DNA of 64,000 nt from Escherichia phage ESCO5. Of this stretch, positions 43,123 through 60,858 are shown piece after piece (positions within the stretch are counted from its first letter, which is position 1; each line of letters starts with the position of its first letter). Below the pieces are notes generated by a model. It was not told the origin of the DNA, made no database searches, and saw only the letters and a list, made by a program, of their open reading frames with translations. The position numbers were made by a program, and so were the translations under genes. The stretch lies in sequence record NC_047776.2; one strand, given 5' to 3'.

Positions 43123-43401
43123 TTAAAATGGTTCGTTAGTCTCCATCATATATTCTGCTTCTAGTTCTTCCATGTGCTTTCTAAATTGGAAAGCAATTTC
43201 TGCTACAGTTACATTTAAATCTTTTTCAAAAACTTCTGTAGATCCTTCATAAAAACGAATACCGTCAATTAAAAGCCCTCCGTGGTAATCCCAATCGCTT
43301 TCACGAGAAAGTGGATTAGGTTCTTCATAATAGTAATCCACCTCCACAACCAAGGCTTTCCCGTTACGAGTGGTGTATTCAAAATCAAAAGTGTTAATCA
43401 T
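43123..43401 (-). CDS. hypothetical protein
   Basis: 92 aa ORF. Confidence 0.5.
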   Translation of the reverse strand: MINTFDFEYTTRNGKALVVEVDYYYEEPNPLSRESDWDYHGGLLIDGIRFYEGSTEVFEKDLNVTVAEIAFQFRKHMEELEAEYMMETNEPF

Positions 43402-44345: not shown

Positions 44346-44352
44346 ACTTCAC

Positions 44353-45300: not shown

Positions 45301-45973
45301 GTGCCAGTGCCTCCTCATAAGAAATTCGGATTTTCCCATTTTTAATATCTTCTAAAGACGCTTTATATTCTTCCCAGTTAATGCCAATAGCAACTTCTTT
45401 CTCTTCTTTTGTCAGATTAGCAAAAGGCATAGGATTGTTTCCAAAAACATCGTCTGGGTGGATATAAGCCATGATACGAAGTGGACAAGGTATTGCCTGA
45501 ATGCCCTGATTCAAACCAGCAGCTTTCAAACGGTGTACCCATTCAGCATCTTCAAAACCATAGCCGTGAGTGTAAGGGCGGAAATAACCCATCTTCTCAA
45601 CAACGGCACGAGAATACATTGCAAATTGACACATTGCAAGTTCCCAGAGAATAACTTCTCCTTTACTCCCAACAACTTTATCTTTGAAATACTCCGGCAT
45701 ACCAAAGAAATCCCATCCTCCAGAGACAGCTTGATCTACAAAATATGTTTCCCATCCCTCCATGATTGGGTAGCAATCGTCGTCAAAAATAAACCAATAA
45801 TCATAACCTTCTTCATAAAACTGGTGCATAAGTTCATTCCTGGCGTAAGCTACACCTTTACGATCTGGATCGTTGAATACTCGAAAATCTGCATGTGGAT
45901 CTGTTACAAGGTAGTCTTTAAGTGGACGGACACCTACAGTGATAACACCCACTCCGATTTTAATATTTTCCAT
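45290..45973 (-). CDS. putative GT-A fold glycosyltransferase
   Basis: 227 aa; DxD-type motif in WFIFDDDCYP and GYGFEDAEWVHRL motif typical of family-2-like transferases. Confidence 0.5.
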   Translation of the reverse strand: MENIKIGVGVITVGVRPLKDYLVTDPHADFRVFNDPDRKGVAYARNELMHQFYEEGYDYWFIFDDDCYPIMEGWETYFVDQAVSGGWDFFGMPEYFKDKVVGSKGEVILWELAMCQFAMYSRAVVEKMGYFRPYTHGYGFEDAEWVHRLKAAGLNQGIQAIPCPLRIMAYIHPDDVFGNNPMPFANLTKEEKEVAIGINWEEYKASLEDIKNGKIRISYEEALAHVK

Positions 45974-45981
45974 TTTCTCTC

Positions 45982-46545
45982 CTAAATAGTTTTACTGTGA
46001 TCGTGACAGTGTAATAAATGATGTATAGACCGTTGAGGATTTGTTTGACCTAATCTGTAAATGTGAAACAGATACATTCCCCGCATCAATCCTAACCTCT
46101 TTCCTTTTTCATGTAAAGTGCGAGAGAAAATTAAGTCGAATTGGATAGATTTTTCTTCGAAAGGAATTTCATTCCACAATGATTTTCTAAAAAGCAAAAA
46201 GAAACCTGCCAGAGGTGTTCCGAAAGGAACTTCTTCAACACTCACTTTATGATATTCTCTTGCAATCTTAGCATATTCTATATGGTTTAGAATATCTGGA
46301 TCATCGTTAATTTGGTTAGAGAAAAGCTGATAACCACTACCTAACCTGTTACAAGTTGCACCTATTACATCAAAAGGCGGGTTTGACATAACAAGCTCTT
46401 CAAGCATAGATGGTTGATCAGGCAGGAGGAACATTGTATCGGTATCTCTTAAGCACACCCAACTATCATCTGGAAGAACGGCAATAGCTTCATTGATAGC
46501 CTTGCCGATATTTCCTGTCAGATAGGGAGTAATATAATAAATCAT
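45982..46545 (-). CDS. putative nucleotide-sugar transferase-like protein
   Basis: 187 aa; N-terminal Rossmann-like MIYYITPY...IGKAINEAI and CLRDTDTMF (DxD-like). Confidence 0.35.
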   Translation of the reverse strand: MIYYITPYLTGNIGKAINEAIAVLPDDSWVCLRDTDTMFLLPDQPSMLEELVMSNPPFDVIGATCNRLGSGYQLFSNQINDDPDILNHIEYAKIAREYHKVSVEEVPFGTPLAGFFLLFRKSLWNEIPFEEKSIQFDLIFSRTLHEKGKRLGLMRGMYLFHIYRLGQTNPQRSIHHLLHCHDHSKTI

Positions 46546-47864: not shown

Positions 47865-48467
47865 TTATGGACATTCATACCATTCTTTTTTACCACCGAA
47901 GGCCATTACCACATCGCAAATATCCAGACCAGCTTTACCTACACCATATGCTTTCAGCTTCCATTCTCCATCTTCACGAACCAGGGAAGCCACGTGGCAG
48001 ATTGTGTTGCCAGCTACTTCAGGAGCCAGGAAGTCAAAATCCAGAATTTCCACATTACGCTCGGAGTCGAAGATTTTAAGCATACCTTCAGAAGCATGAC
48101 CAAAACGTTTCAGACCTGTATCATCATCAATAGTCAGAACAAAGGCAATCTCTTGTGCATCAGGAGAGATTTTAGCCAGAGTAATATCAATCTGCTCCAT
48201 GCTGCCAGTTCCATCACGAACATCGTCACCAGCAAAGGTAGAACGTTCAGGATCAAACTTATTAGCATAGCAAACCAGATGACGTGCAGACAGCATTTCA
48301 GGATTGCCAGCGGCATTGTGACGACAAACCAGTGCACTTACATCCAGATCCAGTTTAGAATCAGATTTCCAAGAGAACTCCAGGCGTAGTTCTTTCAGAG
48401 CCGGAGCAACTTTCTTCAGGGAAATTTTTTCGCTAGAGCCTTTTTTCAGGGAAATTTTATCAGTCAT
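47865..48467 (-). CDS. terD: TerD-domain protein
   Basis: 200 aa; aligns along its length to E. coli TerD: ISLKKG..ISLKK start, LDLDVSALV, GDDVRDGTG, IAFVLTIDD, GEWKLKAYGVGKAGL. Confidence 0.9.
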   Translation of the reverse strand: MTDKISLKKGSSEKISLKKVAPALKELRLEFSWKSDSKLDLDVSALVCRHNAAGNPEMLSARHLVCYANKFDPERSTFAGDDVRDGTGSMEQIDITLAKISPDAQEIAFVLTIDDDTGLKRFGHASEGMLKIFDSERNVEILDFDFLAPEVAGNTICHVASLVREDGEWKLKAYGVGKAGLDICDVVMAFGGKKEWYECP

Positions 48468-48482
48468 CTTTTGTCTCCTCTA

Positions 48483-48752
48483 TTATTTAAGTGTAATACC
48501 AGTTACAGTCAATTCTACTTCCAAAAGCTTAGATGTGTTTTGGATTGATACTAATTGTGCATGATGGTTTAGTTCTACAGCAGAATAATCATTTTCCCCA
48601 TCATCTACTTTTAAATAAACAATGATTTCACTAAGGTCTAAACCATTTTCGTCAAATGCATTTTCATAGACGAAAGTATCTCCTACATCCAAATCTTTAA
48701 TGGTAAGGCATCGTTTATTTACTTTTTGCTCATCAATTTCGAAGTTTAACAC
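48483..48752 (-). CDS. hypothetical small protein (DLDVGDTF family, paralog B)
   Basis: 89 aa; shares IKDLDVGDTFVYENAFDENGLD...VTGITLK with paralog A. Confidence 0.55.
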   Translation of the reverse strand: MLNFEIDEQKVNKRCLTIKDLDVGDTFVYENAFDENGLDLSEIIVYLKVDDGENDYSAVELNHHAQLVSIQNTSKLLEVELTVTGITLK

Positions 48753-48981
48753 TTCTTCCTCCTAATATTATCTCCGGTTTATATATACGAAGAATTATAG
48801 CATTTTCATTTTCTTTGTCAACCCATTCTTCATAATCAGGCCATACATGAATCTCTACTCTACTTACAATATCTTCCATTCGCACAGTCCCAATGAAATA
48901 CTCTTTGAGACTGCACATAATGAAAGCTTCTCTCTCGCGCCAATAATTTTCTATGACTTGAGAGGCAAGCTCGTCGATCAT
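48733..48981 (-). CDS. hypothetical protein
   Basis: 82 aa ORF between vWA gene and paralog B. Confidence 0.45.
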   Translation of the reverse strand: MIDELASQVIENYWREREAFIMCSLKEYFIGTVRMEDIVSRVEIHVWPDYEEWVDKENENAIILRIYKPEIILGGRSVKLRN

Positions 48982-49772
48982 TTTTTAGCACCTACTTTAA
49001 CAACCCACTCTCCGAACTCTTCAGATAAGAGTTTGTCATAAAGCTCTGAATCTGTCAAGTCTAAATCTTTAATGCCAATAAAACCAACATTATCATAAGC
49101 ATTTGCCAGTTCTTTCAGGAAGCCAAACTTCTCATTACCAACGCCAACCATGAACCAATAAATAGGTTTATTCTTATTCTCTTCAATAAGACGACGAACA
49201 GCACTAGGATCACCATTCTCACCATCCGTCTGGAAGAATACAACACCAGGGGTAACGTCAGCACCTGGTTCAGACACAGCTACAACCTTTTCACGCTCTA
49301 CAGATACTGTTTCAGTTTTACCAAGCAGACGATTAAAGAAGCCTTTCTTTGGAGCCTCTTCTTGTACCACTTGTTTAGTGGTAATATATTTGGTAACAGT
49401 GCCAAAATACTCATCGTAGATATCTGCCATTACAGGGGCGTAATTTGTTCCACCTCCGATACGAACATTACGCATACATTTACCAACATAGTCATCGTAA
49501 ACGTCTGCTGTTGCTGGAGTAAGCTCTTGGGAACTCGTATTGAAGGCCCACATATCAATTTGTTGATTATCGTCGAACAGCATACCAAAAGGAAGCAGTT
49601 TACCTACAAAATCACTCACTACCCCACTAGAATATAGACCATGCATACTACCAGAAATATCTAGAGCACATGCTACACGAAGAACAATCTTACCTTCATT
49701 CAGGTTCTTATTCTTTTTCAGAGAGAAAGCAAGGTTTTCTTGACGTTTTTTCAGGCTGATTTTATCGGACAT
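48978..49772 (-). CDS. vWA-domain protein (TerY-like)
   Basis: 264 aa; MIDAS motif in VLRVACALDISGSMHG; GGGTNYAPVM; N-terminus MSDKISLKK resembles TerD start. Confidence 0.7.
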   Translation of the reverse strand: MSDKISLKKRQENLAFSLKKNKNLNEGKIVLRVACALDISGSMHGLYSSGVVSDFVGKLLPFGMLFDDNQQIDMWAFNTSSQELTPATADVYDDYVGKCMRNVRIGGGTNYAPVMADIYDEYFGTVTKYITTKQVVQEEAPKKGFFNRLLGKTETVSVEREKVVAVSEPGADVTPGVVFFQTDGENGDPSAVRRLIEENKNKPIYWFMVGVGNEKFGFLKELANAYDNVGFIGIKDLDLTDSELYDKLLSEEFGEWVVKVGAKK

Positions 49773-49773
49773 A

Positions 49774-50052
49774 TTATTTCTCCTTCTTAAGTGTAATGTT
49801 GGTAACTTCTAAATCTACTTCCACCATATTTGTATCTGGCGGGATGCAATGAGTATAGCCTCGTTGTGCTAGTGATCCATTAATACAAATCGCACTGTTT
49901 GTGGAATTTTTAATGAACACCAAGTTACGGTAGGTATCCAACCCTGCGTCTTCATAGGCATCATAATACATGAATGTGTCCCCTACGTCAAGATCTTCGA
50001 AAGCAATAGGTAAATCCTGACCTTTTTCTTCTTGAATATTGAATCTAAACAC
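49774..50052 (-). CDS. hypothetical small protein (DLDVGDTF family, paralog A)
   Basis: Start moved to GTG behind GAGGAGG RBS, giving 92 aa; FEDLDVGDTFMYYDAYEDAGLD...VTNITLKKEK. Confidence 0.5.
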   Translation of the reverse strand: MFRFNIQEEKGQDLPIAFEDLDVGDTFMYYDAYEDAGLDTYRNLVFIKNSTNSAICINGSLAQRGYTHCIPPDTNMVEVDLEVTNITLKKEK

Positions 50053-50608
50053 GCATACCTCCTCTACCAATTTTGAAGCCCAAATCGTAAGCTTCCTTAG
50101 TAATCTTTTGTAACTCACTTATAGGAAGTGTTACAAGAGGATCATCTTCTTCAATTTCCATCTTGTCATCTTCTGTTTCAATGAGAGTATTATGCACTTT
50201 GTGATAAGGGTTGTCAACACGTTTAAACTTATTCTTTTCTGTGCTGAAAAAACAATCTGGATCTTCTTCACCATCACCCCAACCTTGATTAGGATCTCCG
50301 TCAGATTGTTCTGTAGGGATTTCACCTGTAAAGTACTCTTCCAGCACCATAGCAATACCGTCCCTTGGATTTGAGGAATGCATTAAATCACAAACCTTAC
50401 CCCAATCCATAGCCCATTCGAACCGTTCACGAACGCCATTTTCATCCTCTTTTCCAGAGAAAACACAACCATAACTATCATAGTTGCCATACATCTCTTC
50501 AATAACAACACCGTCTTTCAAAAGAAAGAGGTAGCAAGGTGATCCGTCGAAAGAAGTAGAAAGGGCAGCTTTGCCCGATTCTTTGCACAAAAAACTAAAA
50601 CAACCCAT
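50045..50608 (-). CDS. hypothetical protein
   Basis: 187 aa acidic protein. Confidence 0.5.
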   Translation of the reverse strand: MGCFSFLCKESGKAALSTSFDGSPCYLFLLKDGVVIEEMYGNYDSYGCVFSGKEDENGVRERFEWAMDWGKVCDLMHSSNPRDGIAMVLEEYFTGEIPTEQSDGDPNQGWGDGEEDPDCFFSTEKNKFKRVDNPYHKVHNTLIETEDDKMEIEEDDPLVTLPISELQKITKEAYDLGFKIGRGGMRV

Positions 50609-50811
50609 TACAAACCCTCCTTCAGATTATCAAGAGCTACAGTGGTTTCACAAAATTCTCCATAAGCTTTATGATGTTCCAGAAAAGCTTCGGGTCCACC
50701 CCAGTCATTATCTTGTGTATTCCAACCATCAATAAAAGCATCTTCAATGATTGTGATCAGTTCTTGTCGGGTTAACTGGATAATATTAGGATCGTTATCG
50801 TAGTTAAACAT
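50608..50811 (-). CDS. hypothetical small protein
   Basis: 67 aa ORF; start overlaps upstream small ORF stop. Confidence 0.45.
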   Translation of the reverse strand: MFNYDNDPNIIQLTRQELITIIEDAFIDGWNTQDNDWGGPEAFLEHHKAYGEFCETTVALDNLKEGL

Positions 50812-50977
50812 CTTCTTCCTCCTCTAAAATATGAAACCCGTAATTACAATAGTCCTGAAAGGTTTCGTGCGCAAGATCTTCTATATCCTCTTGAGACATA
50901 TCATCTTCAATTTCGATATCCACAACCTCATTGCATCCACACCAAGCAGTTTCAATATTCACTCGTAATATTTTCAT
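50804..50977 (-). CDS. hypothetical small acidic protein (not in ORF track)
   Basis: About 57 aa; ATG overlaps upstream stop (TAATG) behind GAGGAGGAGGAG; fills 165-nt gap. Confidence 0.35.
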   Translation of the reverse strand: MKILRVNIETAWCGCNEVVDIEIEDDMSQEDIEDLAHETFQDYCNYGFHILEEEEDV

Positions 50978-51174
50978 TACTCCTCCTCCTCATTGAAGTC
51001 AATATCTGCAAGGAGTTCGAATTTACGGAAGTTACGACAACCTTCATAAATATAACAATCACGACAAACTGCTAGAACACTTGGGGGATATATGCCTCCC
51101 ATCGGTGCGAATCGTTTTTCGTCATCATAACGGACACCAATGTCTTCATCAATTATATAGATACGGATTCTCAT
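50977..51174 (-). CDS. hypothetical small protein
   Basis: 65 aa with Cys pairs. Confidence 0.45.
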   Translation of the reverse strand: MRIRIYIIDEDIGVRYDDEKRFAPMGGIYPPSVLAVCRDCYIYEGCRNFRKFELLADIDFNEEEE

Positions 51175-52283
51175 TTACCAAGCCCTCGTTTCACAGCAGC
51201 TACCATCCCGTCTTCCAGAGATTGAACTTCATTAATATAATCAACACGAGCAGCACGGGCTTCCGTATTGATGCGGTTAGTTTCTTCCAACATCTTAACC
51301 AAGTTTTCCTGATCGTGACGCAGAGTTTCAATATCCAACACTTGACGGTTAGCCAGTGCTGCTGCTTCGATCTGATTCTGTGTGGCAAGATCGCTACCTA
51401 GTTTAATTGCCAGGTTAAATTCATCAAGAACGTTATTCTGCGTCTCTGCTGCTTTCATTTGACGTAAGCTCTCGATATACATTGAGAAGTTAGCAGAGTA
51501 AGCAGGAATAACATTATTTACTATGTTACGCGCAGATCGCATTAAGCTTGCAGAAACTTTTTGCATACCTTGTACACGCGGTCCCATTTGGACACACAGT
51601 AGGCGCAACGCCTTTAAATCTGCAATACGAATCTCCAGGAGATCCAAAGTATCTCGGATCACTTGTCGCTGTTCTACGGCATCTTCTGGAAGAGCAGCCA
51701 AAGCTTGTTCTTCTTTTTCATAGGTTGCTGTTAGAAGCTGCATATCTCGGTTCAAACTTGCAGCATATTGTCCAATAGCTTGGTGTAGCTTTTCAAGATA
51801 TACCAAGGAATCTTCTTCTTTGCGAATATCCATTTGAAGGTTCTTTACCAACTCTTCAATACGGTTATTAACATTATCAAACTCCCCAAACAGGTCTTCT
51901 TTCATACCCATAACTTTTTTAATGAGTTTAGTAATACCCTTGCTTTGTTTAATAGAGTTTGGATCAAGTTGTTTTGCCTGTTTAATCAAGGCTGTGAGTC
52001 GTTCACTCATCTGATCGCCTTGATTACTACGTTGATGTTTTAACACCTCGGCATTCAAGGAACGCAAGGTTGTTCCTGCCTCTGCCCCAATCTCTTCGAT
52101 CTCTTGTCGGGTCATAGAAGGTAAAACTGGAACTTCTTGCGGTGCTGCTGGTGCATAAACAGGACTGGCATCTAACACACTTGGAGCAAATACAGATTTA
52201 CTTGCATCTGTTGTTGCAGCGAATACACTCATTTCAGACTTCTTCTGACCACCAGTAGCTGCTTTTAAAAATGGACTTGTCAT
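51171..52283 (-). CDS. TelA-like (toxic anion resistance family) protein, candidate
   Basis: 370 aa helical/coiled-coil protein; assignment rests on size, composition and linkage to TerD/TerC; not motif-verified. Confidence 0.4.
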   Translation of the reverse strand: MTSPFLKAATGGQKKSEMSVFAATTDASKSVFAPSVLDASPVYAPAAPQEVPVLPSMTRQEIEEIGAEAGTTLRSLNAEVLKHQRSNQGDQMSERLTALIKQAKQLDPNSIKQSKGITKLIKKVMGMKEDLFGEFDNVNNRIEELVKNLQMDIRKEEDSLVYLEKLHQAIGQYAASLNRDMQLLTATYEKEEQALAALPEDAVEQRQVIRDTLDLLEIRIADLKALRLLCVQMGPRVQGMQKVSASLMRSARNIVNNVIPAYSANFSMYIESLRQMKAAETQNNVLDEFNLAIKLGSDLATQNQIEAAALANRQVLDIETLRHDQENLVKMLEETNRINTEARAARVDYINEVQSLEDGMVAAVKRGLGK

Positions 52284-52870
52284 TCTTCATTCTCCTCTTC
52301 TGCATCTCTTATATATGGTGAAACACCGTACTCTTTAGCTACTTTAACCCAATCATCCCATTTATACAACCATAATTTTCCTTCAGTTCCTTCTTTATCT
52401 GATTTCAACCACATGTTAGGTTGCTTGCCTGGGTACATGCGATTAGGTTTACGATTATAACCTCTAACACATCTTGTCGCAAACCTATCTACCAGAACAA
52501 GAACATATTTATATTCGTGGTTCAACGGCTCTTTGGAAGTGGCTTTAGGATTAGCTCCTAATTCTGCTGCCAGTTTTTGCCAATGAGCACCGTGTCTACT
52601 AAACTTACCCATACAACCATCAATAGCATGAGCAATTTCGTGCTTCATTGTATCCACGATCATATCTCTTGTAGAGTTCTTATGCAAGTGCCAATTTACA
52701 ACAACAATTTTATCTCGGTAGTTGCACCAACCGAAAGAGTTATTAACTTTGTTTCTAACACAAGCTTTATATCCTGCTTCACGTAACATGTTGTAGTAAA
52801 CAGGAAAATCTTCTTTTATTTCCTGCATCACTTCCCACCACAAGAGTTGCAAGTCTCTCTCGGTATGCAT
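52280..52870 (-). CDS. SprT-like zinc metallopeptidase
   Basis: 196 aa; HEIAHAIDG (HExxH) followed by RHGAHWQKLAAELG, as in SprT/WLM family. Confidence 0.55.
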   Translation of the reverse strand: MHTERDLQLLWWEVMQEIKEDFPVYYNMLREAGYKACVRNKVNNSFGWCNYRDKIVVVNWHLHKNSTRDMIVDTMKHEIAHAIDGCMGKFSRHGAHWQKLAAELGANPKATSKEPLNHEYKYVLVLVDRFATRCVRGYNRKPNRMYPGKQPNMWLKSDKEGTEGKLWLYKWDDWVKVAKEYGVSPYIRDAEEENEE

Positions 52871-52873
52871 AAC

Positions 52874-53467
52874 TTACACCTTAAAAGCGAAATGCGTGGT
52901 CGTGGCTTCAAAATCAGGGCCAGATAAACTTGCACTGAAATCTGAAATATTTGTAATTAAAAAGCTTTTATGCATACCTAACACAGCCACGCTTTCAATA
53001 TCTTCTACTAACATTTCAATCATGTTAGAAACATGGCTGAACGTAGAGTTTTGTTTTTTGATGGTGTAGAAAGAAAGATTCCCACCTGCTATATAAGACA
53101 CCTCTTCAAAATCTTTAATCGTATATTGTGTGCCATCAGTAAAGAAAATGGTAGCTTTATTAGTAGCACGTTTCTTGTTTTTTGGTCCTTTTTTACGTTT
53201 ACTGCGAGTAGGCAAACCGTTTGGAAATACCGTAGCTACAAATTCTTCAGGAGAAACCTCCTTACCGAAATCATAACCGTAAGAAACAGCGTCTATAAAC
53301 TCGTCGTCTTCATTTTTAAAATAATGAAAATAGGGCCAATTTGAGAGATTATCGAGCATCTTATGCTCATCCACAGCAGAGAACGTATCCCTCAAAGCAC
53401 GTGTGATTTGCAAAGCATTAGGCAAACTTTTAACACCTGTAATGGAAGTACGAATAGAAATTGTCAT
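52874..53467 (-). CDS. hypothetical protein
   Basis: 197 aa ORF. Confidence 0.5.
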   Translation of the reverse strand: MTISIRTSITGVKSLPNALQITRALRDTFSAVDEHKMLDNLSNWPYFHYFKNEDDEFIDAVSYGYDFGKEVSPEEFVATVFPNGLPTRSKRKKGPKNKKRATNKATIFFTDGTQYTIKDFEEVSYIAGGNLSFYTIKKQNSTFSHVSNMIEMLVEDIESVAVLGMHKSFLITNISDFSASLSGPDFEATTTHFAFKV

Positions 53468-53481
53468 TGTTTTTCTCCTTA

Positions 53482-53919
53482 TTAACGTCGCTTGCTACGA
53501 GATGAACTCTTTTTACTTAAAGGACTATTGTAAGATTTACGAGTTGTATAGCTACTATTTGTTTTAAAAGTTTGTCTCGGCTTTTCATAAGTTTTTATCT
53601 CTTGTTTAGGCTTACTATAAAAATTAGTTTTCGGTTTAGGTGTATTATAATGCTTATTAATAATCGTTCTGTTATCGTTATAATCCCCACTGCTACGATT
53701 ACTACCGCCACTCATCATATGCCCTAACAACATACCTGTAGCAAACTCACCAACACCGCTACTACTAGAACCGCCACCATTGTTGATAATAGTTGTATCT
53801 CCGTCAGATCCTTGTTGAGCGTATTGTTGAGGAGGTTGTTGGTATTGTGCAGGATTTGTTTCATCCTCGCAAGCTGTTAAAAAGATACAACCAATTAAAA
53901 TCAGGGCTAGTTTTTTCAT
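53482..53919 (-). CDS. predicted lipoprotein
   Basis: Start moved to ATG behind GAGGA RBS; MKKLALILIGCIFLTAC signal peptide with lipobox LTAC; Gln/Pro/Gly/Ser-rich mature part; basic C-terminus. Confidence 0.55.
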   Translation of the reverse strand: MKKLALILIGCIFLTACEDETNPAQYQQPPQQYAQQGSDGDTTIINNGGGSSSSGVGEFATGMLLGHMMSGGSNRSSGDYNDNRTIINKHYNTPKPKTNFYSKPKQEIKTYEKPRQTFKTNSSYTTRKSYNSPLSKKSSSRSKRR

Positions 53920-54106
53920 ATTTGCTTTCCTCGTTTTGGCTATTAATACATCTGTGTTTGAAATCTCCAGAGAAGCAATAAAGTTGCTCTCCATCTCGGT
54001 ATAAACTCACTTTACTGCCGTTGATTACGCTTGTCAATACAAAAATTACAACAAACAACCCTATTGCAAAACAAATATTTTCAAACACAACCAACAAGTA
54101 TTTCAT
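53861..54106 (-). CDS. small membrane protein overlapping lipoprotein gene start
   Basis: 81 aa; N-terminal TM FAIGLFVVIFVLTSVI; ATG overlaps upstream TGA (ATGA); 3' end overlaps lipoprotein start in another frame. Confidence 0.4.
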   Translation of the reverse strand: MKYLLVVFENICFAIGLFVVIFVLTSVINGSKVSLYRDGEQLYCFSGDFKHRCINSQNEESKYEKTSPDFNWLYLFNSLRG

Positions 54107-54453
54107 TTTAAAAATACCTCATCATCAGTTTCATTATCCCAGAAGAACAAGTCCCAACCATTCGGATCATTCCATTTAGCTGCTGGAGAAGTCCATATTT
54201 GCTCGATATCAATATTCAAAACTTCACCGTTTCGTTTTGAAACAGCTTTAGTTAATTCCCAACGGGATACAGGCTCCACTTCCCCTGAACCACTCCCACA
54301 ACAAGCTACCACATTAGGAGGCAAATTAATTGGATCTTTGGTCACAATCATAACGCTTACCCCAGGGTAAACTTTTGAAAGATAATCTAAAACGTAATCC
54401 ACATCACCAGATAAATCCCAAACAAGTTCTTGAATTTCATCAAAATTATTCAT
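54103..54453 (-). CDS. hypothetical acidic protein
   Basis: 116 aa ORF. Confidence 0.5.
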   Translation of the reverse strand: MNNFDEIQELVWDLSGDVDYVLDYLSKVYPGVSVMIVTKDPINLPPNVVACCGSGSGEVEPVSRWELTKAVSKRNGEVLNIDIEQIWTSPAAKWNDPNGWDLFFWDNETDDEVFLK

Positions 54454-54495
54454 AAGTCTCTCCTATAAAATAGCCTCCCGAAGGAGGCTCATCTA

Positions 54496-55470
54496 TTAAA
54501 CAGCAGCTTCTTCTTTTTCAGGGAAGATAAAGCTTGCAATAACACCAAGAGATAATGTGCCTAGAACAATCATCAGACTTACGTTAGGGGAAATATCATG
54601 CGGGAGGAATGACCACTTGGCATGAAGTGTTTCACCGAACGGGTGATACATAAGTTTAGCACCAACAAACACCAGAACCACAGCAACAGCTTTCTCTAAG
54701 TGAACCAGATATTTCACAGCTACACTTAACACAAAGAAAAGTGCACGTAAACCAAGAACAGCCATCAGCATTGCAGAATAAACTAGCAGAGGTTCTTGTG
54801 TCACACCGATTACAGCCGGAACTGAATCAAAAGAGAAGACAATATCTGTAAGCTCAATAACAAACACACAAAGAAGAGCAGGAGTTGCATATTTAATACC
54901 ATTCTTAATGGTAATGAACTTTTCACCATCTAGTGCATTGTGCACAGGCAGAACTTTACCTACTAAACGAACAGCCCAATGCTTAGAGTAATCAATATCC
55001 TCTTCTTCGTCACCACCTTTGATGATAGCCACGGCAGACCAAGCTACAATCAAACCGAACAACACTTGGACCGACCAATGAAGGTTAAACAAAGCGGTCC
55101 CTGCTGCAACAAAAATACCTCGGAAGACAATGGCTCCTGCAATCCCCCAAAGTAAAATCTTATGTTGAAGATGTGTGCTCTTAATTCCAAAGCTTGCAAA
55201 AATTGCCATGAATACCATCAGGTTATCTACAGAAAGACTCTTTTCCAACACATAGCCACTTAGGAAAAGCGCGGCAAACTCTTTACCATGTTCTACCCAA
55301 ATGAATGCGTAATATCCTAAAGCTAAAGCAATCCAAAAAACAGACCAAAGCAAAGCAGATTTAATTCCAATTTCTTTATTCTCTTTATGACCAAAGAAAT
55401 CGATACCAATAGACAATGCCAAAATACCAACTAAAACAACTACATCAATAATTGGGAAACCGAGTTGCAT
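54496..55470 (-). CDS. terC: TerC-family integral membrane protein
   Basis: 324 aa polytopic membrane protein; LEKSLSVDNLMVF and ELTDIVFSFDSVPAVIGVT duplicated TerC signature. Confidence 0.8.
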   Translation of the reverse strand: MQLGFPIIDVVVLVGILALSIGIDFFGHKENKEIGIKSALLWSVFWIALALGYYAFIWVEHGKEFAALFLSGYVLEKSLSVDNLMVFMAIFASFGIKSTHLQHKILLWGIAGAIVFRGIFVAAGTALFNLHWSVQVLFGLIVAWSAVAIIKGGDEEEDIDYSKHWAVRLVGKVLPVHNALDGEKFITIKNGIKYATPALLCVFVIELTDIVFSFDSVPAVIGVTQEPLLVYSAMLMAVLGLRALFFVLSVAVKYLVHLEKAVAVVLVFVGAKLMYHPFGETLHAKWSFLPHDISPNVSLMIVLGTLSLGVIASFIFPEKEEAAV

Positions 55471-55551
55471 TCTTTTCTCCTCTCTTTGCGGGGAACTATT
55501 CCCCGCTTCATTTGATATATATCTTACTCTTTTTAAGAACTATGTCAACAC

Positions 55552-55773
55552 TTATTTTGTTGAATGAGAGGAAAAGATTCCTCGTAATACCGCCAGAATA
55601 AACGAAACACAAACCACGGTCCAGAAGGTTACTGGGACAGTGATATCTGCATGACCCATAACTTCAGCAACATAGTTGTAAGCCAGCAACAGTAACCAAG
55701 CTGGAATCAAACTAAGCATAAAAGCAATAACAAAAAAGCTTACCACCGCAATAATACCTGCAAAAACACCCAT
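55552..55773 (-). CDS. small membrane protein
   Basis: 73 aa; 2-3 hydrophobic segments. Confidence 0.45.
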   Translation of the reverse strand: MGVFAGIIAVVSFFVIAFMLSLIPAWLLLLAYNYVAEVMGHADITVPVTFWTVVCVSFILAVLRGIFSSHSTK

Positions 55774-55785
55774 ACTAATCTCCTC

Positions 55786-56259
55786 TTAAAGTTTATAAAT
55801 AGTCACATCGTGACCTGTTTTTACTAAAGTTTCTTCAATCATCACTTGGATGATAGCCCAATTACCTCCAGCATATCCAGCGCCAATCATAGGTAAGCCG
55901 ATCTTACATTTTTGGTCACGGAGAAGCACATCATTAGCCATAGCTATTAGTGCATCGTAAAGTGCATCATAGTCCAACTGACGACCTTTAGCATTGTATC
56001 CGTAACGGTATTGCCCGTATAGATTATATACCAAAGGGTCTGATTGTTCGTCTGGCACCCCTAAACTAAAAGAACCTAACTTACTTTGATCACCAGCCAT
56101 TGTGTCTAAATCTGCCGCATATGCATAAGGGAATGCTCGTTTAATTTGCGGAGCAATTCCTGCCCCCATATTACACATACAATTGCAACAATGAGCAATA
56201 ACAGTTACTTCACCTGCTTTAGCGGCATCAATAAGATTACCTGTTTTCATTTTAAGCAT
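55786..56259 (-). CDS. macro-domain protein (TARG1/DarG-type)
   Basis: Start moved to ATG behind AAGGAG RBS (158 aa); VIAHCCNCMCNMGAGIAPQI matches the AHCxxxxCxMGAGIA motif of TARG1-like macrodomains; IGLPMIGAGYAGG second motif. Confidence 0.65.
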   Translation of the reverse strand: MLKMKTGNLIDAAKAGEVTVIAHCCNCMCNMGAGIAPQIKRAFPYAYAADLDTMAGDQSKLGSFSLGVPDEQSDPLVYNLYGQYRYGYNAKGRQLDYDALYDALIAMANDVLLRDQKCKIGLPMIGAGYAGGNWAIIQVMIEETLVKTGHDVTIYKL

Positions 56260-56272
56260 TTTTAGCTCCTTA

Positions 56273-57100
56273 TTACAGAATGTGTTGTTTTGTGTAACGA
56301 TCCAAGAATTCAAAGTTTTCAGCATACTTTGAAATTCGGTTGTAACCTTCTCCCAAACATCCGAAGAAAAGTTGCTCTACATAGTAGTGTGGCAATTGGC
56401 TAAGAATGATTTTGAAGTCTTCGTGATTTTGGCCCATAAGATACTTAATAGGACGAACAAGACACTGTGCATCACGTTCTTCATTAATCATTTTAACAAA
56501 CGCTTCTGGTGTATTGATATAGTTAAAATTCAGTTTAGCTTCAGTATCTGCTTGATTACCTTCATATTTTGCAAAATACAAGAAGTAAACATCATTTTTA
56601 ACTTGATTTTCATCAAGAATCTCAATCAGTTTGTCTTCATGAGTTCCGGTGATATTTACATCATCAATGAACACAAGCTTCTTATCACCCCAGAATTCTT
56701 TGTTGCAGTAGAATGTATCCCCATCAATAAGTTTCTTACGACTAGCTTTATCCAAGAAACCATAATCGTTGATATAGCTAACTTTACGATGAATAATATC
56801 CAGTTCTGCTGAACGACCTTGATCATATTGTGCTTGCAACATATTAAAGTAATTAATAAAATGATCTGTCATCATTGTTGCAGCATTGTGCACATGGTTA
56901 TAAGGAGAAGGGATGATAACAAATTGTTCCCCAATATGTTTCATTGCCACTTGAGCAAAAAACTGAAGTACCAATTCTTTACCCATACGACGCGCAGCTT
57001 GGTTACTACCAAATTTCAATTTTGAATAGTCTTTGATATCAAAAGTAGCAGTTTCCAGGTCATCAAATTTATTTGCAAAAATTTGAGTTTGATTACGCAT
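56273..57100 (-). CDS. phosphoribosyltransferase (type I PRTase fold)
   Basis: 275 aa; PRPP-binding motif KKLVFIDDVNITGTHE. Confidence 0.65.
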   Translation of the reverse strand: MRNQTQIFANKFDDLETATFDIKDYSKLKFGSNQAARRMGKELVLQFFAQVAMKHIGEQFVIIPSPYNHVHNAATMMTDHFINYFNMLQAQYDQGRSAELDIIHRKVSYINDYGFLDKASRKKLIDGDTFYCNKEFWGDKKLVFIDDVNITGTHEDKLIEILDENQVKNDVYFLYFAKYEGNQADTEAKLNFNYINTPEAFVKMINEERDAQCLVRPIKYLMGQNHEDFKIILSQLPHYYVEQLFFGCLGEGYNRISKYAENFEFLDRYTKQHIL

Positions 57101-57749
57101 TTACAATTTCTCCTCTTTTAAGTTTCTCTAGTAAGTCGTTAGGGTTCTTAATATGACAGAAGTTAATCCCTATGTCAACACATTTACCATCAAATTCTTC
57201 GCTGTCCCCAACATGTAAAATCTCTTCAGCCTTCAAAGGAATGCTTGAATATGTGGCGGTCCTAACAAAGAATCTAGGATCTGGTTTACATAACAGATGT
57301 TCGTCTGAAAAATGCATAAATTCAAAACAATTCCAACTGTCGAACATACAAGCACGACGCAAAATATCCCCAGATATAAAATTAGTATTGCTTTTAATAC
57401 TAAGATCATATTTACCAGACAAGTATAGCAAACAAACTGGCAAATCTAAAGCGATATGTGGAGGAAATTTAAGAAACCATTGCTCACAATCAAAACGCAT
57501 TTGTGCAGATTCTACAGGGGTTAAACCTATCTTTCTTCCCAACATATTCCATGCATATGCTACACCTTCTGCACACCCATTTAGTGCAGCATTATCCATA
57601 ATTTCTTTGGCATCTTTATATGCTTCTTTTGCCGCACGTTCAGACATTCTACCATATGTAGCAATAGTGTGCGTACGTGCATCTGCATAGTTTTGATTGG
57701 CAGAAATAAGAGTATTCCATACATCAAAAGAAATATGTTTTATTGTCAT
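57093..57749 (-). CDS. HAD-superfamily hydrolase
   Basis: Start moved to ATG just after upstream stop (218 aa); motif I ISFDVWNTL and motif IV VGDSEEFDGK. Confidence 0.5.
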   Translation of the reverse strand: MTIKHISFDVWNTLISANQNYADARTHTIATYGRMSERAAKEAYKDAKEIMDNAALNGCAEGVAYAWNMLGRKIGLTPVESAQMRFDCEQWFLKFPPHIALDLPVCLLYLSGKYDLSIKSNTNFISGDILRRACMFDSWNCFEFMHFSDEHLLCKPDPRFFVRTATYSSIPLKAEEILHVGDSEEFDGKCVDIGINFCHIKNPNDLLEKLKRGEIVNA

Positions 57750-57750
57750 A

Positions 57751-58356
57751 CTAGGCCCACCACGCATCAAGATTTAAGTTACTGTCTACCACAACTTGTT
57801 CTATGTGGTAGCCTTTTATCTGTATCCCACTGTTCAAGAGCATATCATATGCTTCATTGAAACGCAACTTATCTTCTGCGGAATATAAGCGAGCATTGTA
57901 AAATCGGTAATCAAGTTCTTCAGCATTAGAAGAAATACGGAAGAAGTTTGTTTCTACTTCAGGATCACTTGCTGAAGTTTTAATGTGAACTTCTCCGTAA
58001 TTTTCTTTGCTTAGATCCATGAAAAGAACACAGGCAACATGTTTAAACATTCGTTCCAGTTTGTAACGAACAACATTGAAACCTGCGTTCTCAAGTTTTT
58101 CTACACATTGCAACATTAACGTAGTGTCGAGATCGCTTTGATACTTTGTTAACATACGATCACGTTGAGACTTTGTATCCCGATGTAAATCAATTGTTGT
58201 GCATTTGGCACCAATGATCTTAGCTGCTTTCATCAACTCTTCAGAACTAACGTTAGATAAAGTAAGATGAAAATGGGCTTTCCACACTTTTTTAGCAGGG
58301 ACACCAAAAGATTTATCCCCACTATTCGGCATGTTGACTACTACACTATGTTGCAT
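57751..58356 (-). CDS. hypothetical protein (possible 2H-phosphoesterase-like)
   Basis: 201 aa; one HxTx motif (HFHLTL); second motif not clear. Confidence 0.4.
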   Translation of the reverse strand: MQHSVVVNMPNSGDKSFGVPAKKVWKAHFHLTLSNVSSEELMKAAKIIGAKCTTIDLHRDTKSQRDRMLTKYQSDLDTTLMLQCVEKLENAGFNVVRYKLERMFKHVACVLFMDLSKENYGEVHIKTSASDPEVETNFFRISSNAEELDYRFYNARLYSAEDKLRFNEAYDMLLNSGIQIKGYHIEQVVVDSNLNLDAWWA

Positions 58357-58596: not shown

Positions 58597-59047
58597 TCGC
58601 CGTTTTGGTCCATAATCTTTGATTATCTGACCCTCTGAAAGGTTTTGTGGTTGGATTGTTTATTTCATACTTTCCGTCTACAATAATGTCAACAAGATTT
58701 TTAATATACAAAGGCACTTCCTCAAAAGTATATCCTGTATACACCATTATATCTTTGCTTGACCCATAAACGTCTCTAACCTTTTCTATAAGGTTTTTAA
58801 CATTGTAAATATTCTGCGGATCTAATGGTTCTCCTCCTAAAATTGTTAAACCTTTTACAAACGGTCTTGACAAATCTTTTAAAACTTGCTCTACATTTTC
58901 GTTAGTGAACGGTTTCCCATAAGAATAAGACCAGGCTTTCTGGTTAAAACAGCCACGACAACCGTGGCTACAACCACTAACCCAGAGGGAGCACCTAACT
59001 CCCTCACCATTAATAAGATCTACAGGTTCATATCCTGCAAAATTCAA
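58577..59047 (-). CDS. nrdG: anaerobic ribonucleotide reductase activating protein
   Basis: 156 aa; radical-SAM CxxxCxxC motif in CSHGCRGC; immediately downstream of nrdD with overlapping stop/start. Confidence 0.85.
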   Translation of the reverse strand: MNFAGYEPVDLINGEGVRCSLWVSGCSHGCRGCFNQKAWSYSYGKPFTNENVEQVLKDLSRPFVKGLTILGGEPLDPQNIYNVKNLIEKVRDVYGSSKDIMVYTGYTFEEVPLYIKNLVDIIVDGKYEINNPTTKPFRGSDNQRLWTKTASGWQSD

Positions 59048-60858
59048 AGATGTTTCTCCCTTTGCAAAACTTCCTGCATTTTACCTTTGTTATAAGGCCG
59101 TGAATTAGGGGCAGAAAGATACCCTGATACACGTCTAACTACAGAAATAGTTTCTTCTTCATGGTTGCCACAATTAGGACACTCAAACCCTTTAGCCGTT
59201 GCCTTAAATTCTCCATGAAAACCACACTTAAAGCATTGATCCACGGGCTGATTAATACCAAAATAGTGAATATGTTCATAAGCGTAGTCTACTAAAGTCT
59301 CCAAAGCTTCTAAGTTATTCTTTAAGTTTGGTGTTTCGACATAACTTATGTTACCACCATTGCTAATCTGTGCAAAACCTGCTTCATAATCCCATTTTTC
59401 AAAAGGATTTGTTACCAACCATACAGGTTGATGAAAAGAATTAGTAAGATAGTCTCTTTCTACCAGACCTGGATATTTTTCATTTAAAGCTGTTGCAAAT
59501 TTATAGCACAAGGATTCTGCTGGAGTTCCATAAAGACTAAATGCCAACTTAGATCGTTCTTTAAACACAGCACACACATCTTTCATATGTTGCAGAATGT
59601 TTTTACCTAGTTCCTTTTTATCTTTTTCCTCTGGATAAAGGATTTCCAAAGCTTCGGCAAGACCTACATAACCAATACTAATAGAAGCATAACCACCTTC
59701 AAACAAAGCACCAATTTCATCGTTGGCATTTAAACGCGCTAAAGCCCCTTCCATGAAAAGAATAGGGTTTTCAGATGCTTTGGTATGTCTGATACGGTTT
59801 ACACGTAGCATGTGAGCATCGTAGGCTATCTCCATATGTTTATTAAGAAGATCGGTGAAAGATTCTCCTTTACTTCTCGCTTCCGCAGCAATCAGAGGCA
59901 AGTTGATAGAAACTACTCCAAGGTTGAATCGTCCATCATATTTTTCTCCTTGTTCGGTGGCATAGTACGACAAAAAGGAACGACAACCCATACTCGTAAC
60001 GGTACCATCTGCTGATCCCGTAACTTCTTTGTTCAAAGGAACAGAAATAAAATCTGGATAAATACGATCAGCACAACATGCCAAAGCTTGTTGCTTAAGG
60101 TCGTAGTTAGGATCACTAGGTTTCATGTTAACACCTTCTTGTAAAAAGAAAATAACTTTAGGGAATACAGGCGTTACATGATCTTTACCTAGACCGTTAC
60201 TATGCACTTTAAGATAGTTAGCTGTGATCATTCTGCCAAAAACAGAGGTATCCAGACCCATACTGATTGTAATAAAAGGAGATTGTCCATTAACACTCAT
60301 TAAAGTGTTAACCTGATACAAAAGAGTTTGCATAGCGTCATATACATCTTGTTCGGTCATTTCTAGGGCTTCTTTCCTTGCATAACAACCGTAGCGACGT
60401 TTGGTTATCTCCATGTTTTTAAGGAAACTGGCTTCAACATAAGGACTAAGACCTTTATCAATGTGCGCACACGTCTGACCTCCATACTGACTGGAGGCAA
60501 CAGCTTGGATGATTTGAGTTAGCACTGTAGTAGCTACTCCAATAGATTTTGGTTTTTCTATCTGTGCAGCACCGATCTTAAAACCATTCTCTAACATATC
60601 TTGATAATTAACAAGACAACAGTTTGTAAGAGGAGAGAGCAGATAATCCAAGTCGTGAATATGTCCAAAACCTTCTGTATGCCATTCTGACAAGTTTTTT
60701 GGCAGTATCTGTGTCATTGCCATATGTTTGCTTAAAATCCCCGCCAAGAGATCCCTGTGCGTGTTAACAAGGTGGGAAGGTTTGTTTGCATTCTCTCTAG
60801 TGTATGTTTCTGAAGTGCGATCTAAAAAAGAAAAAACATCTTGGTACAAATCTTTCAT
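59044..60858 (-). CDS. nrdD: anaerobic ribonucleoside-triphosphate reductase (class III)
   Basis: 604 aa; C-terminal zinc ribbon CFKCG...CPNCG and glycyl-radical motif RVSGYL. Confidence 0.9.
   Translation of the reverse strand: MKDLYQDVFSFLDRTSETYTRENANKPSHLVNTHRDLLAGILSKHMAMTQILPKNLSEWHTEGFGHIHDLDYLLSPLTNCCLVNYQDMLENGFKIGAAQIEKPKSIGVATTVLTQIIQAVASSQYGGQTCAHIDKGLSPYVEASFLKNMEITKRRYGCYARKEALEMTEQDVYDAMQTLLYQVNTLMSVNGQSPFITISMGLDTSVFGRMITANYLKVHSNGLGKDHVTPVFPKVIFFLQEGVNMKPSDPNYDLKQQALACCADRIYPDFISVPLNKEVTGSADGTVTSMGCRSFLSYYATEQGEKYDGRFNLGVVSINLPLIAAEARSKGESFTDLLNKHMEIAYDAHMLRVNRIRHTKASENPILFMEGALARLNANDEIGALFEGGYASISIGYVGLAEALEILYPEEKDKKELGKNILQHMKDVCAVFKERSKLAFSLYGTPAESLCYKFATALNEKYPGLVERDYLTNSFHQPVWLVTNPFEKWDYEAGFAQISNGGNISYVETPNLKNNLEALETLVDYAYEHIHYFGINQPVDQCFKCGFHGEFKATAKGFECPNCGNHEEETISVVRRVSGYLSAPNSRPYNKGKMQEVLQREKHL

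Follow-up and report, generated by a model that had tools for sequence, protein, structure and literature searches.

A conserved Ter-type gene cluster with a linked HAD-PRTase_3 pair in Escherichia phage ESCO5 and related Stephanstirmvirinae phages

Ter-dependent stress-response systems were reportedly defined in 2012 by Anantharaman, Iyer and Aravind, and a ter cluster in phage phi92 is said to have been described in the same year by Schwarzer et al. Ter genes occur widely among bacteria, plasmids and phages, and since the 1990s they have been associated with tellurite resistance, phage inhibition and colicin resistance (PMC8386662, PMC9796965). For the ter cluster of plasmid R478, the statement in PMC8386662 that cites Whelan 1995 names phage inhibition and colicin resistance. 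In 2021, Iyer, Anantharaman, Krishnan, Burroughs and Aravind (Viruses 13:63, section 3.4.10; PMC7824862) treated the Ter systems of jumbo phages and of “certain other related smaller tailed phages”, and proposed that phages use them against superinfecting phages. Similar remarks have been made on Ter genes of Klebsiella phage phiKp34 (PMC8386662) and Pseudomonas phage phiPsa374 (PMC9796965). The terD operons of gut “Jug” jumbo phages are highly transcribed in gut metatranscriptomes, and proteins of these phages have been misassigned to bacterial genomes in the UHGG catalogue (PMC12880540). Here we analyze a cluster of this kind in Escherichia phage ESCO5 (sequence record NC_047776.2), located on the minus strand at positions 47,865 to 57,749 of a 64,000-nucleotide stretch that is referred to throughout as the window. 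The cluster had been flagged in an earlier reading of the window made from its letters and open reading frames (ORFs), termed the sequence-only reading below. That reading knew of no functionally characterised phage example, and our literature search concurs, having found no published functional test of any phage ter gene.

Proteins were compared with the Pfam, NCBIfam, PHROG and PADLOC profiles, and Rfam, PDB sequence searches, AlphaFold2 and Foldseek were used in addition. The interval holds a conserved Ter-type gene cluster of Stephanstirmvirinae phages, and the identities of its parts are close to certain (Table 1). Its core consists of six genes, encoding a HAD-fold hydrolase, a PRTase_3 phosphoribosyltransferase (PRTase), a TerC protein of the Alx subfamily, a TelA protein, a TerF-like vWA protein and a TerD protein. 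Profile searches upheld all seven domain assignments of the sequence-only reading (TerD, vWA, TelA, TerC, PRTase, HAD and macro) at their minus-strand coordinates; where the Pfam match was weak, backing came from PDB entry 5E3B for the macro domain and from NCBIfam HAD-IA models and motifs I-IV for the HAD protein. An SprT-like metalloprotease gene, which had not been named, was also found. Membership in the Ter-dependent systems, in the sense of Anantharaman, Iyer and Aravind, is borne out as well, since TerD, TerC, TelA, a vWA protein with a metal ion-dependent adhesion site (MIDAS) and linked PRTase and HAD genes are all present, and the neighborhood recurs in unrelated genomes. The novelty that had been implied does not hold. 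The cluster is real, and it is already annotated and discussed in several papers: near-identical deposited genomes (99% identity in GenBank) carry the labels “tellurite resistance”, “TerD family protein”, “macro domain-containing protein” and “putative orotate phosphoribosyltransferase”, and comparable clusters were reportedly noted in phi92 in 2012 and were treated for jumbo phages and related smaller tailed phages in 2021.

The phages concerned are strictly lytic myoviruses of ∼150 kb, of the phAPEC8 type, in subfamily Stephanstirmvirinae. As judged from how a close relative is annotated, the cluster belongs to the early/replication arm on the minus strand, with NrdD/NrdG and helicases upstream and an endolysin, four glycosyltransferases and a primase-helicase downstream, which agrees with the replication-arm placement in a lytic phage given earlier. 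Over its whole 9.9 kb, the interval shares 98.9% DNA identity with Escherichia phage nieznany and with Phapecoctavirus DIJ07P1, and it is 96-99% identical to dozens of phAPEC8-like/Phapecoctavirus genomes; the window is ∼99% identical to published genomes such as that of ESCO13. Nucleotide matches were obtained in 128 phage records, 61 of which cover at least 80% of the interval, and practically every genome of Phapecoctavirus and Justusliebigvirus contains the cluster (128-155 phage records). Phage phi92, from a different genus, has the same gene order, and its six core proteins are 48-81% identical in amino-acid sequence to those of ESCO5. The GC content of the interval is 0.36-0.40, and the flanks are alike. 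Ratios of nonsynonymous to synonymous substitution rates (dN/dS) were derived from a comparison with a relative that has 79% PRTase identity, and should be considered approximate due to saturation of dS; they are 0.035 for TelA, 0.042 for SprT, 0.053 for TerD, 0.056 for PRTase, 0.076 for the macro domain and 0.105 for TerC, with 0.087 for NrdG as a comparison gene. The six core genes are under strong purifying selection and are clearly maintained. Because of its flank-like GC content, its near-universal presence in Phapecoctavirus and Justusliebigvirus and its low dN/dS, the cluster is ancestral core content and not an insertion. A recently acquired island was ruled out by the first two of these properties, and the word “island” used in the sequence-only reading is not appropriate.

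Linkage of the core genes is also seen in distant genomes, where their order is shuffled. A search with PRTase_3 returned 241 relatives, mostly on phage-sized contigs. In a 350-kb root-metagenome jumbo phage, whose PRTase is 48% identical, genes for TelA, vWA-TerF, TerC, HAD, PRTase_3 and TerD lie within 10 kb in another order. A second distant contig carries TerC, TerD, vWA, HAD and PRTase_3 together, and four further IMG/VR lineages are similar; PRTases of these distant lineages are 40-50% identical, and comparable clusters occur on viral contigs of 195-350 kb. To count such linkage, profile hidden Markov models built from the hits were applied to the 10 kb around the HAD-PRTase_3 pair in 12 distinct phage lineages from outside Stephanstirmvirinae. 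At least two Ter proteins, and usually three, were found near the pair in six of these lineages, and none in the other six. The distance between the PRTase and TerD genes is ∼40 kb in Brevundimonas jumbo phages. A scan of 100,044 species genomes for the PRTase subfamily gave 12 Rhizobiaceae loci, where the pair is alone, and two Bacteroidota bins, where it accompanies TerD paralogues and, in one case, also TerC. The Bacteroidota locus L038 (CAILKE010000056) has the order DUF805-TerD-TerD-OmpA-HAD-PRTase_3-OmpA/PD40-TerC, followed by two further genes and an integrase; having come from a metagenome bin, it may be of mobile-element or phage origin. In PLSDB, relatives of the phage PRTase were found in Rhizobiaceae and Hymenobacter only, with none on IncHI2-type plasmids. 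Because linkage that recurs in shuffled order is hard to explain by inherited synteny, these loci argue for a functional connection among HAD-PRTase_3, TerD, vWA, TelA and TerC. We consider it probable, with ample room for doubt, that the six core genes form one functional module.

The gene for the HAD protein is directly upstream of that for PRTase_3 in all 24 phage and plasmid loci that were fetched, the pair was likewise found in 15 of 15 genome loci, and in ESCO5 the HAD stop overlaps the PRTase start by 8 nt. The HAD protein matches the Pfam Hydrolase profile only below threshold (1.4e-3); it also matches NCBIfam HAD-IA models (DREG-2, 1.6e-8; CTE7, 1.4e-6) and PHROG 14393 “hydrolase” (6e-121), and HAD motifs I-IV are conserved across an alignment of 22 homologues. 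Motif I is D-V-W-N-T, where the residue at Asp+2 is Trp in 20 of the 21 sequences with motif I and Tyr in one, and its likeness, as judged from the NCBIfam matches, is to dehalogenase-type and REG-2-like HADs. In PRTase_3, the loop that binds phosphoribosyl pyrophosphate (PRPP) is intact (LVFIDDVNITGTHE), and D146, D147, G152, T153, H154 and E155 are invariant in 88 homologues. The AlphaFold2 model made with these 88 homologues (predicted local distance difference test [pLDDT] score 94, predicted template modeling score 0.90) has a type I PRTase core and a C-terminal helical extension. No sequence relatives of PRTase_3 were found in the PDB. Its best Foldseek matches there are HGPRT-type (6-oxopurine) enzymes and H. 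pylori ComF, at template modeling (TM) scores of 0.36-0.46 and 11-15% identity; these are too remote for the base to be read from structure, and this assignment was dropped. The pair is also common to Rhizobium phages (PRTase 45% identical) and large Rhizobiaceae plasmids (36-40%), where Ter genes are absent. This distribution suggests that phages and hosts have exchanged the pair and that it has a Ter-independent role.

The Pfam alignment of TerD spans profile positions 3-177 of 187. In the PDB, the protein matches Klebsiella TerD 2KXT (E=1.5e-15, residues 5-183) and 3IBZ (2.9e-14); it is 100% identical in phAPEC8 and many other phages, and 81% identical in phi92. The vWA protein has the MIDAS motif DISGS and no sequence relatives in the PDB. 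It had been read as vWA/TerY-like, and of this the vWA domain and MIDAS stand, whereas the TerY likeness does not, since Pfam makes the protein TerF-like. No TerY-P triad was found, as PADLOC gave no match for the vWA protein or its neighbors and the interval has no kinase or PP2C domain. TerY-P and other catalogued defense systems were rejected as identities for the cluster because PADLOC has no match for TerD, vWA, TelA, TerC, PRTase or HAD.

TerD and the vWA protein share the N-terminus M-[ST]-D-K-I-S-L-K-K (MSDKISLKK in the vWA protein), and each gene has a small PHROG 11278 gene directly upstream. The products of these two small genes, paralogues A and B, are 34% identical (BLASTP, 4e-14). 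DNA repeats that are 73-79% identical join both junctions (direct repeat D1, at the TerD and vWA starts; 48441-48523 and 49746-49823). Together, the paralogous genes, the shared N-terminal peptide and the DNA repeats indicate an old tandem duplication of a cassette comprising a small gene and a TerD-type N-terminus.

In the AlphaFold2 model of TelA (pLDDT 70), the N-terminus is disordered, and beyond it three predicted helices (127-197, 203-311 and 319-367) form a long coiled-coil bundle. The structure prediction that had been proposed for this protein thus supports the helical coiled coil and provides no significant fold match, as Foldseek gave no PDB match at E≤1e-3 and only generic long helical bundles beyond that. 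The PDB also holds no sequence relatives of TelA. No membrane-remodeling fold is read from the model, which is of moderate quality and whose matches were to BAR domains, ClyA-family toxins and designed bundles.

TerC scores 318.6 bits against the NCBIfam model TIGR03718 TerC/Alx, where the cutoff is 246 (4.5e-95). Its 5' leader contains a promoter-like site and a hairpin (z = −4.8) 12 nt ahead of the ribosome-binding site. This layout of promoter and hairpin is kept in five lineages with different stem sequences, and compensatory changes are seen in five of seven stem pairs, with none broken. An Mn riboswitch was a candidate upstream of an Alx-type terC and was rejected. No yybP-ykoY Mn2+ riboswitch was matched in Rfam at the gathering score in the window, or at E≤10 in 55300-55900, and a conserved simple hairpin stands there instead. 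The best of the other promoter-like sites is a perfect sigma70 consensus with an extended −10 element (TTGACA-16-TG-TATAAT, 12 of 12 positions), located inside the 82-aa ORF and upstream of paralogue B and terD. Due to the early/replication-arm location and the host-type sigma70 promoter-like sites, the cluster genes are probably expressed early.

On the minus strand, 22 consecutive ORFs extend over 47865-58356, and 21 of these are within the flagged interval. The tight packing reported for them is true of 11 of 20 junctions, which overlap; it is broken on either side of TerC, by 81 nt that hold a promoter-like site before the gene and by 42 nt that hold a terminator-like hairpin after the gene, and there are further promoter-like sites within the cluster. 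Eleven of the 21 interval ORFs have no Pfam or other curated family and fall only in unannotated PHROG clusters. About half of the 21 are lineage-specific with no assigned family; these small genes are interspersed with the core and include several predicted membrane proteins and a lipoprotein. The macro, SprT-like and 201-aa genes vary between genera and are treated as add-ons to the core. For these reasons, and because of the internal signals, the idea of one compact system was not retained.

Among the add-ons, the macro domain has a Pfam score right at the gathering threshold, and in the PDB it matches 5E3B (SCO6735, 5.6e-13), BT1257 (1e-8) and TARG1 (2.4e-6), as well as the T. aquaticus DarG macro domain. 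From these matches its class is TARG1/SCO6735/DarG-macro, with SCO6735 closest. The DarG match itself (PADLOC, 3e-10; NCBIfam, 34 bits versus a cutoff of 250) covers only positions 2-147 of 338. The protein is not DarG, as it is 157-179 aa long, has no C-terminal DarT-binding domain and has no DarT nearby. With SCO6735 it shares “G-Q” and “G-x-A-G-G” at the positions of the catalytic Lys and Asp of TARG1; the position of the Lys appears to be Gln, as in SCO6735 (“nlygqy” versus “nmigqh”). A macro or “ADP-ribose binding” gene occurs within ∼8 kb of the pair in three lineages (phi92, L018 and Xanthomonas phage XaC1).

The SprT-like protein is 94% identical in the relative with 79% PRTase identity (L012) and has no phi92 orthologue. 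Its gene stop shares a 4-nt overlap with the TelA start, by which the two genes are predicted to be translationally coupled. The SprT-like gene and the 201-aa gene are restricted to Phapecoctavirus-like phages. The latter lies just outside the flagged interval and stops 1 nt short of the HAD start. Phapecoctavirus-like lineages have it, phi92 does not, and it is probably an independent add-on. Beyond its matches to AbiEi models, the 201-aa protein has no Pfam, NCBIfam or PDB match, and its homologues have no Pfam domain. It could be a phage-borne antitoxin mimic directed against AbiE. A 2H phosphoesterase, suggested by the H-x-T-like “HLTL”, was rejected for want of a profile or PDB match. Of the smaller genes, that for the 187-aa protein has a phi92 counterpart with 76% identity. 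Among the three small ORFs at 53482-54453, the predicted 145-aa lipoprotein is Gly/Ser/Gln-rich with a basic tail, and the phi92 counterpart gp180 carries a predicted signal peptide. The overlap of the 81-aa ORF with the lipoprotein gene (53482-54106) is reminiscent of overlapped spanin genes or exclusion lipoproteins.

Table 1. Features of the ESCO5 Ter-type cluster and its upstream neighbor, in the direction of transcription (window coordinates)
Feature	Position	Strand	Length (aa)	Profile match or remark
AbiEi-like protein	57751..58356	-	201	PADLOC AbiEi 5.4e-13, 4.2e-12
HAD-fold hydrolase	57093..57749	-	218	Counted from ATG at 57749; the longest ORF begins at 57770
PRTase_3, ComF-like type I phosphoribosyltransferase	56273..57100	-	275	Pfam PF15610 2.7e-41
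Stand-alone macro domain	55786..56259	-	157	From ATG at 56259 (longest 179 aa, to 56325); Pfam Macro 1.5e-4; PHROG 335
Small hydrophobic membrane protein	55552..55773	-	73	PHROG 16065; phi92 orthologue 7e-24
terC 5' leader	55488..55548	-		Sigma70-like promoter TTGACA-16-TAAGAT (55548..55521), then 8-bp GC hairpin
TerC family, Alx subfamily, integral membrane protein	54496..55470	-	324	Pfam TerC 3e-40
Terminator-like hairpin	54472..54489	-		AGCCTCC-TTCG-GGAGGCT and T-rich tail; 7 nt after terC stop
116-aa ORF	54103-54453	-	116	PHROG only; no Pfam at E≤5
Protein with N-terminal hydrophobic helix	53861-54106	-	81	PHROG only; no Pfam at E≤5
Predicted lipoprotein	53482-53919	-	145	Lipobox L-T-A-C; overlaps 81-aa ORF; no Pfam at E≤5
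197-aa protein	52874..53467	-	197	Weakly conserved in phi92; no Pfam
SprT-like Zn-metalloprotease	52280..52870	-		HEIAH motif; Pfam SprT-like 4.2e-9; NCBIfam SprT 1.8e-4
TelA family protein	51171..52283	-	370	Pfam TelA 3.2e-33; PHROG 5890 “tellurite resistance”
Four overlapping ORFs	50045..51174	-	65, 57, 67, 187	57-aa ORF: weak DUF7167 match
Promoter-like site	50217..50189	-		11/12 match
PHROG 11278 small protein, paralogue A	49774..50052	-	92	Directly upstream of vWA gene
vWA-TerF-like protein	48978..49772	-	264	Pfam PF10138 1.6e-37
82-aa ORF	48733..48981	-	82	No family; holds sigma70 consensus promoter 48821..48794
PHROG 11278 small protein, paralogue B	48483..48752	-	89	Directly upstream of TerD
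TerD-domain protein	47865..48467	-	200	Pfam TerD 3.2e-28

The flanking genes gave several side observations. Four consecutive glycosyltransferase genes (window 43401-46545, minus strand) are just downstream of the endolysin, and phi92 and a distant viral contig of 153 kb (L021) likewise have such genes conserved beside their Ter clusters. NrdD (window 59044-60858) is a single uninterrupted ORF of 604 aa. The phi92 NrdD gene (L002 6218-8296) is annotated as a two-piece spliced gene, and one tblastn segment covers 325 of the 604 residues. Genomes that are 97-99% identical have been deposited as Campylobacter, Acinetobacter, Klebsiella, Serratia and Shigella phages, and in a record labeled as a Pseudomonas phage the PRTase is 78.5% identical. 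Some of these host labels, notably Campylobacter jejuni, look implausible and may be due to contamination or mislabeling.

For the function of the cluster, we tentatively prefer an early inner-membrane module that would protect the infected cell or exclude competitors, although as a whole explanation we give it somewhat less than an even chance. The genes would be expressed early from the sigma70-like promoters, and TerC would insert in the inner membrane. The TelA coiled coil, the MIDAS vWA protein and TerD would assemble under TerC to form a metal-dependent, membrane-associated complex, which would protect the envelope of the infected cell from the injection of DNA by superinfecting phages, from pore-forming colicins and possibly from membrane-attacking abortive-infection effectors. 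From PRPP and some base, the PRTase_3-HAD pair would make a small ribosylated product that serves as a ligand or signal for the Ter complex, and the pair could also work without Ter proteins. The identities of the parts and their recurrent linkage are shown; complex formation, the PRTase-HAD product and the phenotype are inferred. The envelope-protection or exclusion role, for which we would go slightly less far, is suggested by analogy because of the phage-inhibition and colicin phenotypes of R478, the envelope character of both the phage and bacterial versions and the early-type promoters. The envelope theme is seen in TerC, the 73-aa and 81-aa membrane proteins and the lipoprotein of the phage cluster, and in the OmpA-domain proteins of the Bacteroidota version. 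The superinfection role proposed by Iyer et al. and the high transcription of phage terD genes in the gut also speak for this reading. In a bolder form that we regard as unlikely, the core would be a self-contained effector, where a PRPP-derived ribosylated molecule made by the atypical HAD protein and the PRTase controls a Ca/Mn-dependent sub-membrane assembly of TelA, vWA, TerD and TerC by which the cell is sealed to superinfecting phages, to colicins or to membrane effectors of abortive infection. If true, this would be the first mechanism for a Ter system in any organism.

Several findings weigh against the inner-membrane module. The Asp+2 general acid/base of canonical HAD phosphatases is missing from the HAD protein and, due to its absence, a simple nucleotidase step from nucleotide to nucleoside is doubtful. 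The TelA model is of moderate confidence and its fold matches are non-specific. In TerD, the acidic calcium-binding loop is partly replaced (GDDVRDGTGSME versus GDNRTGEGDGDDE in 2KXT). TerB, a part of the classical ter operon, was not found in any ORF of the cluster, even with Pfam at E≤5, and at this limit the 11 unassigned ORFs likewise gave no relevant match to TerB or another Ter domain. The cluster is not one operon, given the internal promoter-like sites and the terminator-like hairpin after terC. Furthermore, the promoter scan gave a total of 52 sites, versus 42 ± 7 in shuffled sequence; because this is not an excess, only the best promoter-like sites carry weight. Finally, the pair occurs with no nearby Ter genes in half of the 12 distant lineages, in a Rhizobium phage (L003) and in the 12 Rhizobiaceae loci, and the link between the pair and Ter genes is therefore facultative.

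TerC-family proteins export Mn and metalate exoenzymes in B. subtilis and E. coli, and the cluster might instead be an auxiliary metabolic set that tunes Mn2+, Ca2+ or Zn2+ during infection and has no role in competition. TerC/Alx would export Mn2+ or metalate periplasmic or membrane enzymes, for example the secreted endolysin, and TerD and the MIDAS vWA protein would buffer or sense divalent cations. The placement of TerC in the Alx subfamily above the NCBIfam cutoff, the match of TerD to the Ca2+-binding fold 2KXT, the MIDAS motif and an endolysin with an N-terminal signal immediately downstream of the cluster are all consistent with such housekeeping. Elsewhere, Klebsiella TerC is reported to contribute to zinc and tellurite resistance (PMC12054061), and Jug phages pair terD genes with a Ca2+-ATPase (PMC12880540). 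Metal housekeeping leaves the PRTase-HAD pair and TelA unexplained, however, and fits poorly with the partial loss of the acidic loop in TerD and with a phage terC that is without the Mn riboswitch by which bacterial alx is coupled to metal status; we consider it unlikely. To the same degree, we doubt that the genes have no joint function at all and form a syntenic patchwork of independent early genes, brought about by colinearity and piecemeal capture of host stress genes. The internal promoter-like and terminator-like sites, the half of the ORFs that are unrelated and unassigned, the many genomes where the pair is alone and the wide spacing of PRTase and TerD in the Brevundimonas jumbo phages would be expected of a patchwork. 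It is opposed by the strong purifying selection on all six core genes and by the rearranged loci, in which the pair is found with TerD, vWA, TelA or TerC within 10 kb in at least six distant phage lineages, and again in Bacteroidota.

Counter-defense is a still less likely function. HAD-PRTase_3 and the macro domain, perhaps with the AbiEi-like protein, would rebuild, destroy or mimic nucleotide-derived immune signals or adducts, such as ADP-ribosylation by host toxins or NAD-derived messengers, and the Ter membrane proteins would blunt membrane-disrupting abortive-infection effectors. The class of the macro domain, members of which remove ADP-ribose from proteins or DNA, its recurrence near the pair in the three lineages given above, the AbiEi matches of the 201-aa neighbor and a nicotinamide mononucleotide (NMN) adenylyltransferase/Nudix gene that adjoins the Rhizobium phage pair all point in this direction. 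Against this, the macro domain is far below the DarG cutoff, is without the DarG C-terminal domain and apparently has Gln at the position of the TARG1/DarG catalytic lysine; PADLOC matches none of the six core proteins; and the macro, SprT and AbiEi-like genes vary among lineages whereas the Ter core is constant, which suggests independent modules. Control of lysis, with TerC, the 73-aa and 81-aa membrane proteins, the lipoprotein and TelA tuning the timing of holin and endolysin or acting like spanins, is very improbable. The endolysin gene is only 96 nt downstream of terD, the overlap of the genes for the anchored 81-aa protein and the lipoprotein resembles an i-/o-spanin arrangement, and phi92 gp180 has a signal peptide. 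Nevertheless, the location is in the early arm with sigma70-like promoters, distant phages keep Ter genes with no adjacent endolysin, and the 81-aa protein is short for an i-spanin.

The phage version of the Ter genes is compact, strongly conserved and present in lytic phages, and several of the matched records list E. coli K-12 as host, which makes it a tractable starting point for genetics, metabolomics and biochemistry. New here, and modest, are the count of how often the pair and Ter genes travel together, the departure of HAD motif I from the canonical form, the macro-domain class, the duplicated cassette and the conserved terC leader hairpin.

Among known systems, the stand-alone pair of the Rhizobium phages and the Rhizobiaceae plasmids has the same gene overlap as in ESCO5 and the HAD motif I D-x-W-x-T but no Ter genes within 10 kb. 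On the plasmids its neighbors are metabolic genes of unrelated kinds, and in the phage they are NMN adenylyltransferase/Nudix. In the Bacteroidota L038 locus, HAD-PRTase_3 is likewise placed between TerD and TerC genes, beside envelope proteins and an integrase. Its PRTase is 30% identical, the fetched stretch has no TelA or vWA, and it has OmpA-domain proteins, which the phage lacks. The classical ter operon has multiple TerD-domain paralogues (TerZ, A, D, E and F). It is found as terZABCDEF on plasmids and chromosomes (IncHI2 R478, E. coli O157, Klebsiella). Families in common with the phage are TerC, TerD and the TerF-type vWA proteins, and from this operon come the only phenotypes known for Ter proteins, namely tellurite resistance, phage inhibition and colicin resistance. 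The phage cluster is nevertheless not a classical operon, since it has a single TerD, a single TerF-like vWA, no TerB, another gene order and a TerC of the Alx subfamily. A further difference is TelA, whose family belongs to the kilA/telAB determinant of RK2, separate from the ter operon. The jumbo-phage Ter systems have the same classes of genes as ESCO5, namely the PRTase and HAD “signal biosynthesis” genes, TerD, TerC, TerF-vWA and TelA, but the ∼150-kb ESCO5 genome is not that of a jumbo phage, and the gene order and interspersed genes differ. A close counterpart is the phi92 ter cluster (gp172-gp187). It lacks several small ORFs as well as the genes for the SprT-like and 201-aa AbiEi-like proteins, and has one clear PHROG 11278 copy, upstream of vWA. 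Otherwise it has the same HAD, PRTase and macro genes, small membrane proteins, TerC, TelA, small ORFs, vWA and TerD, followed by the same endolysin and glycosyltransferases.

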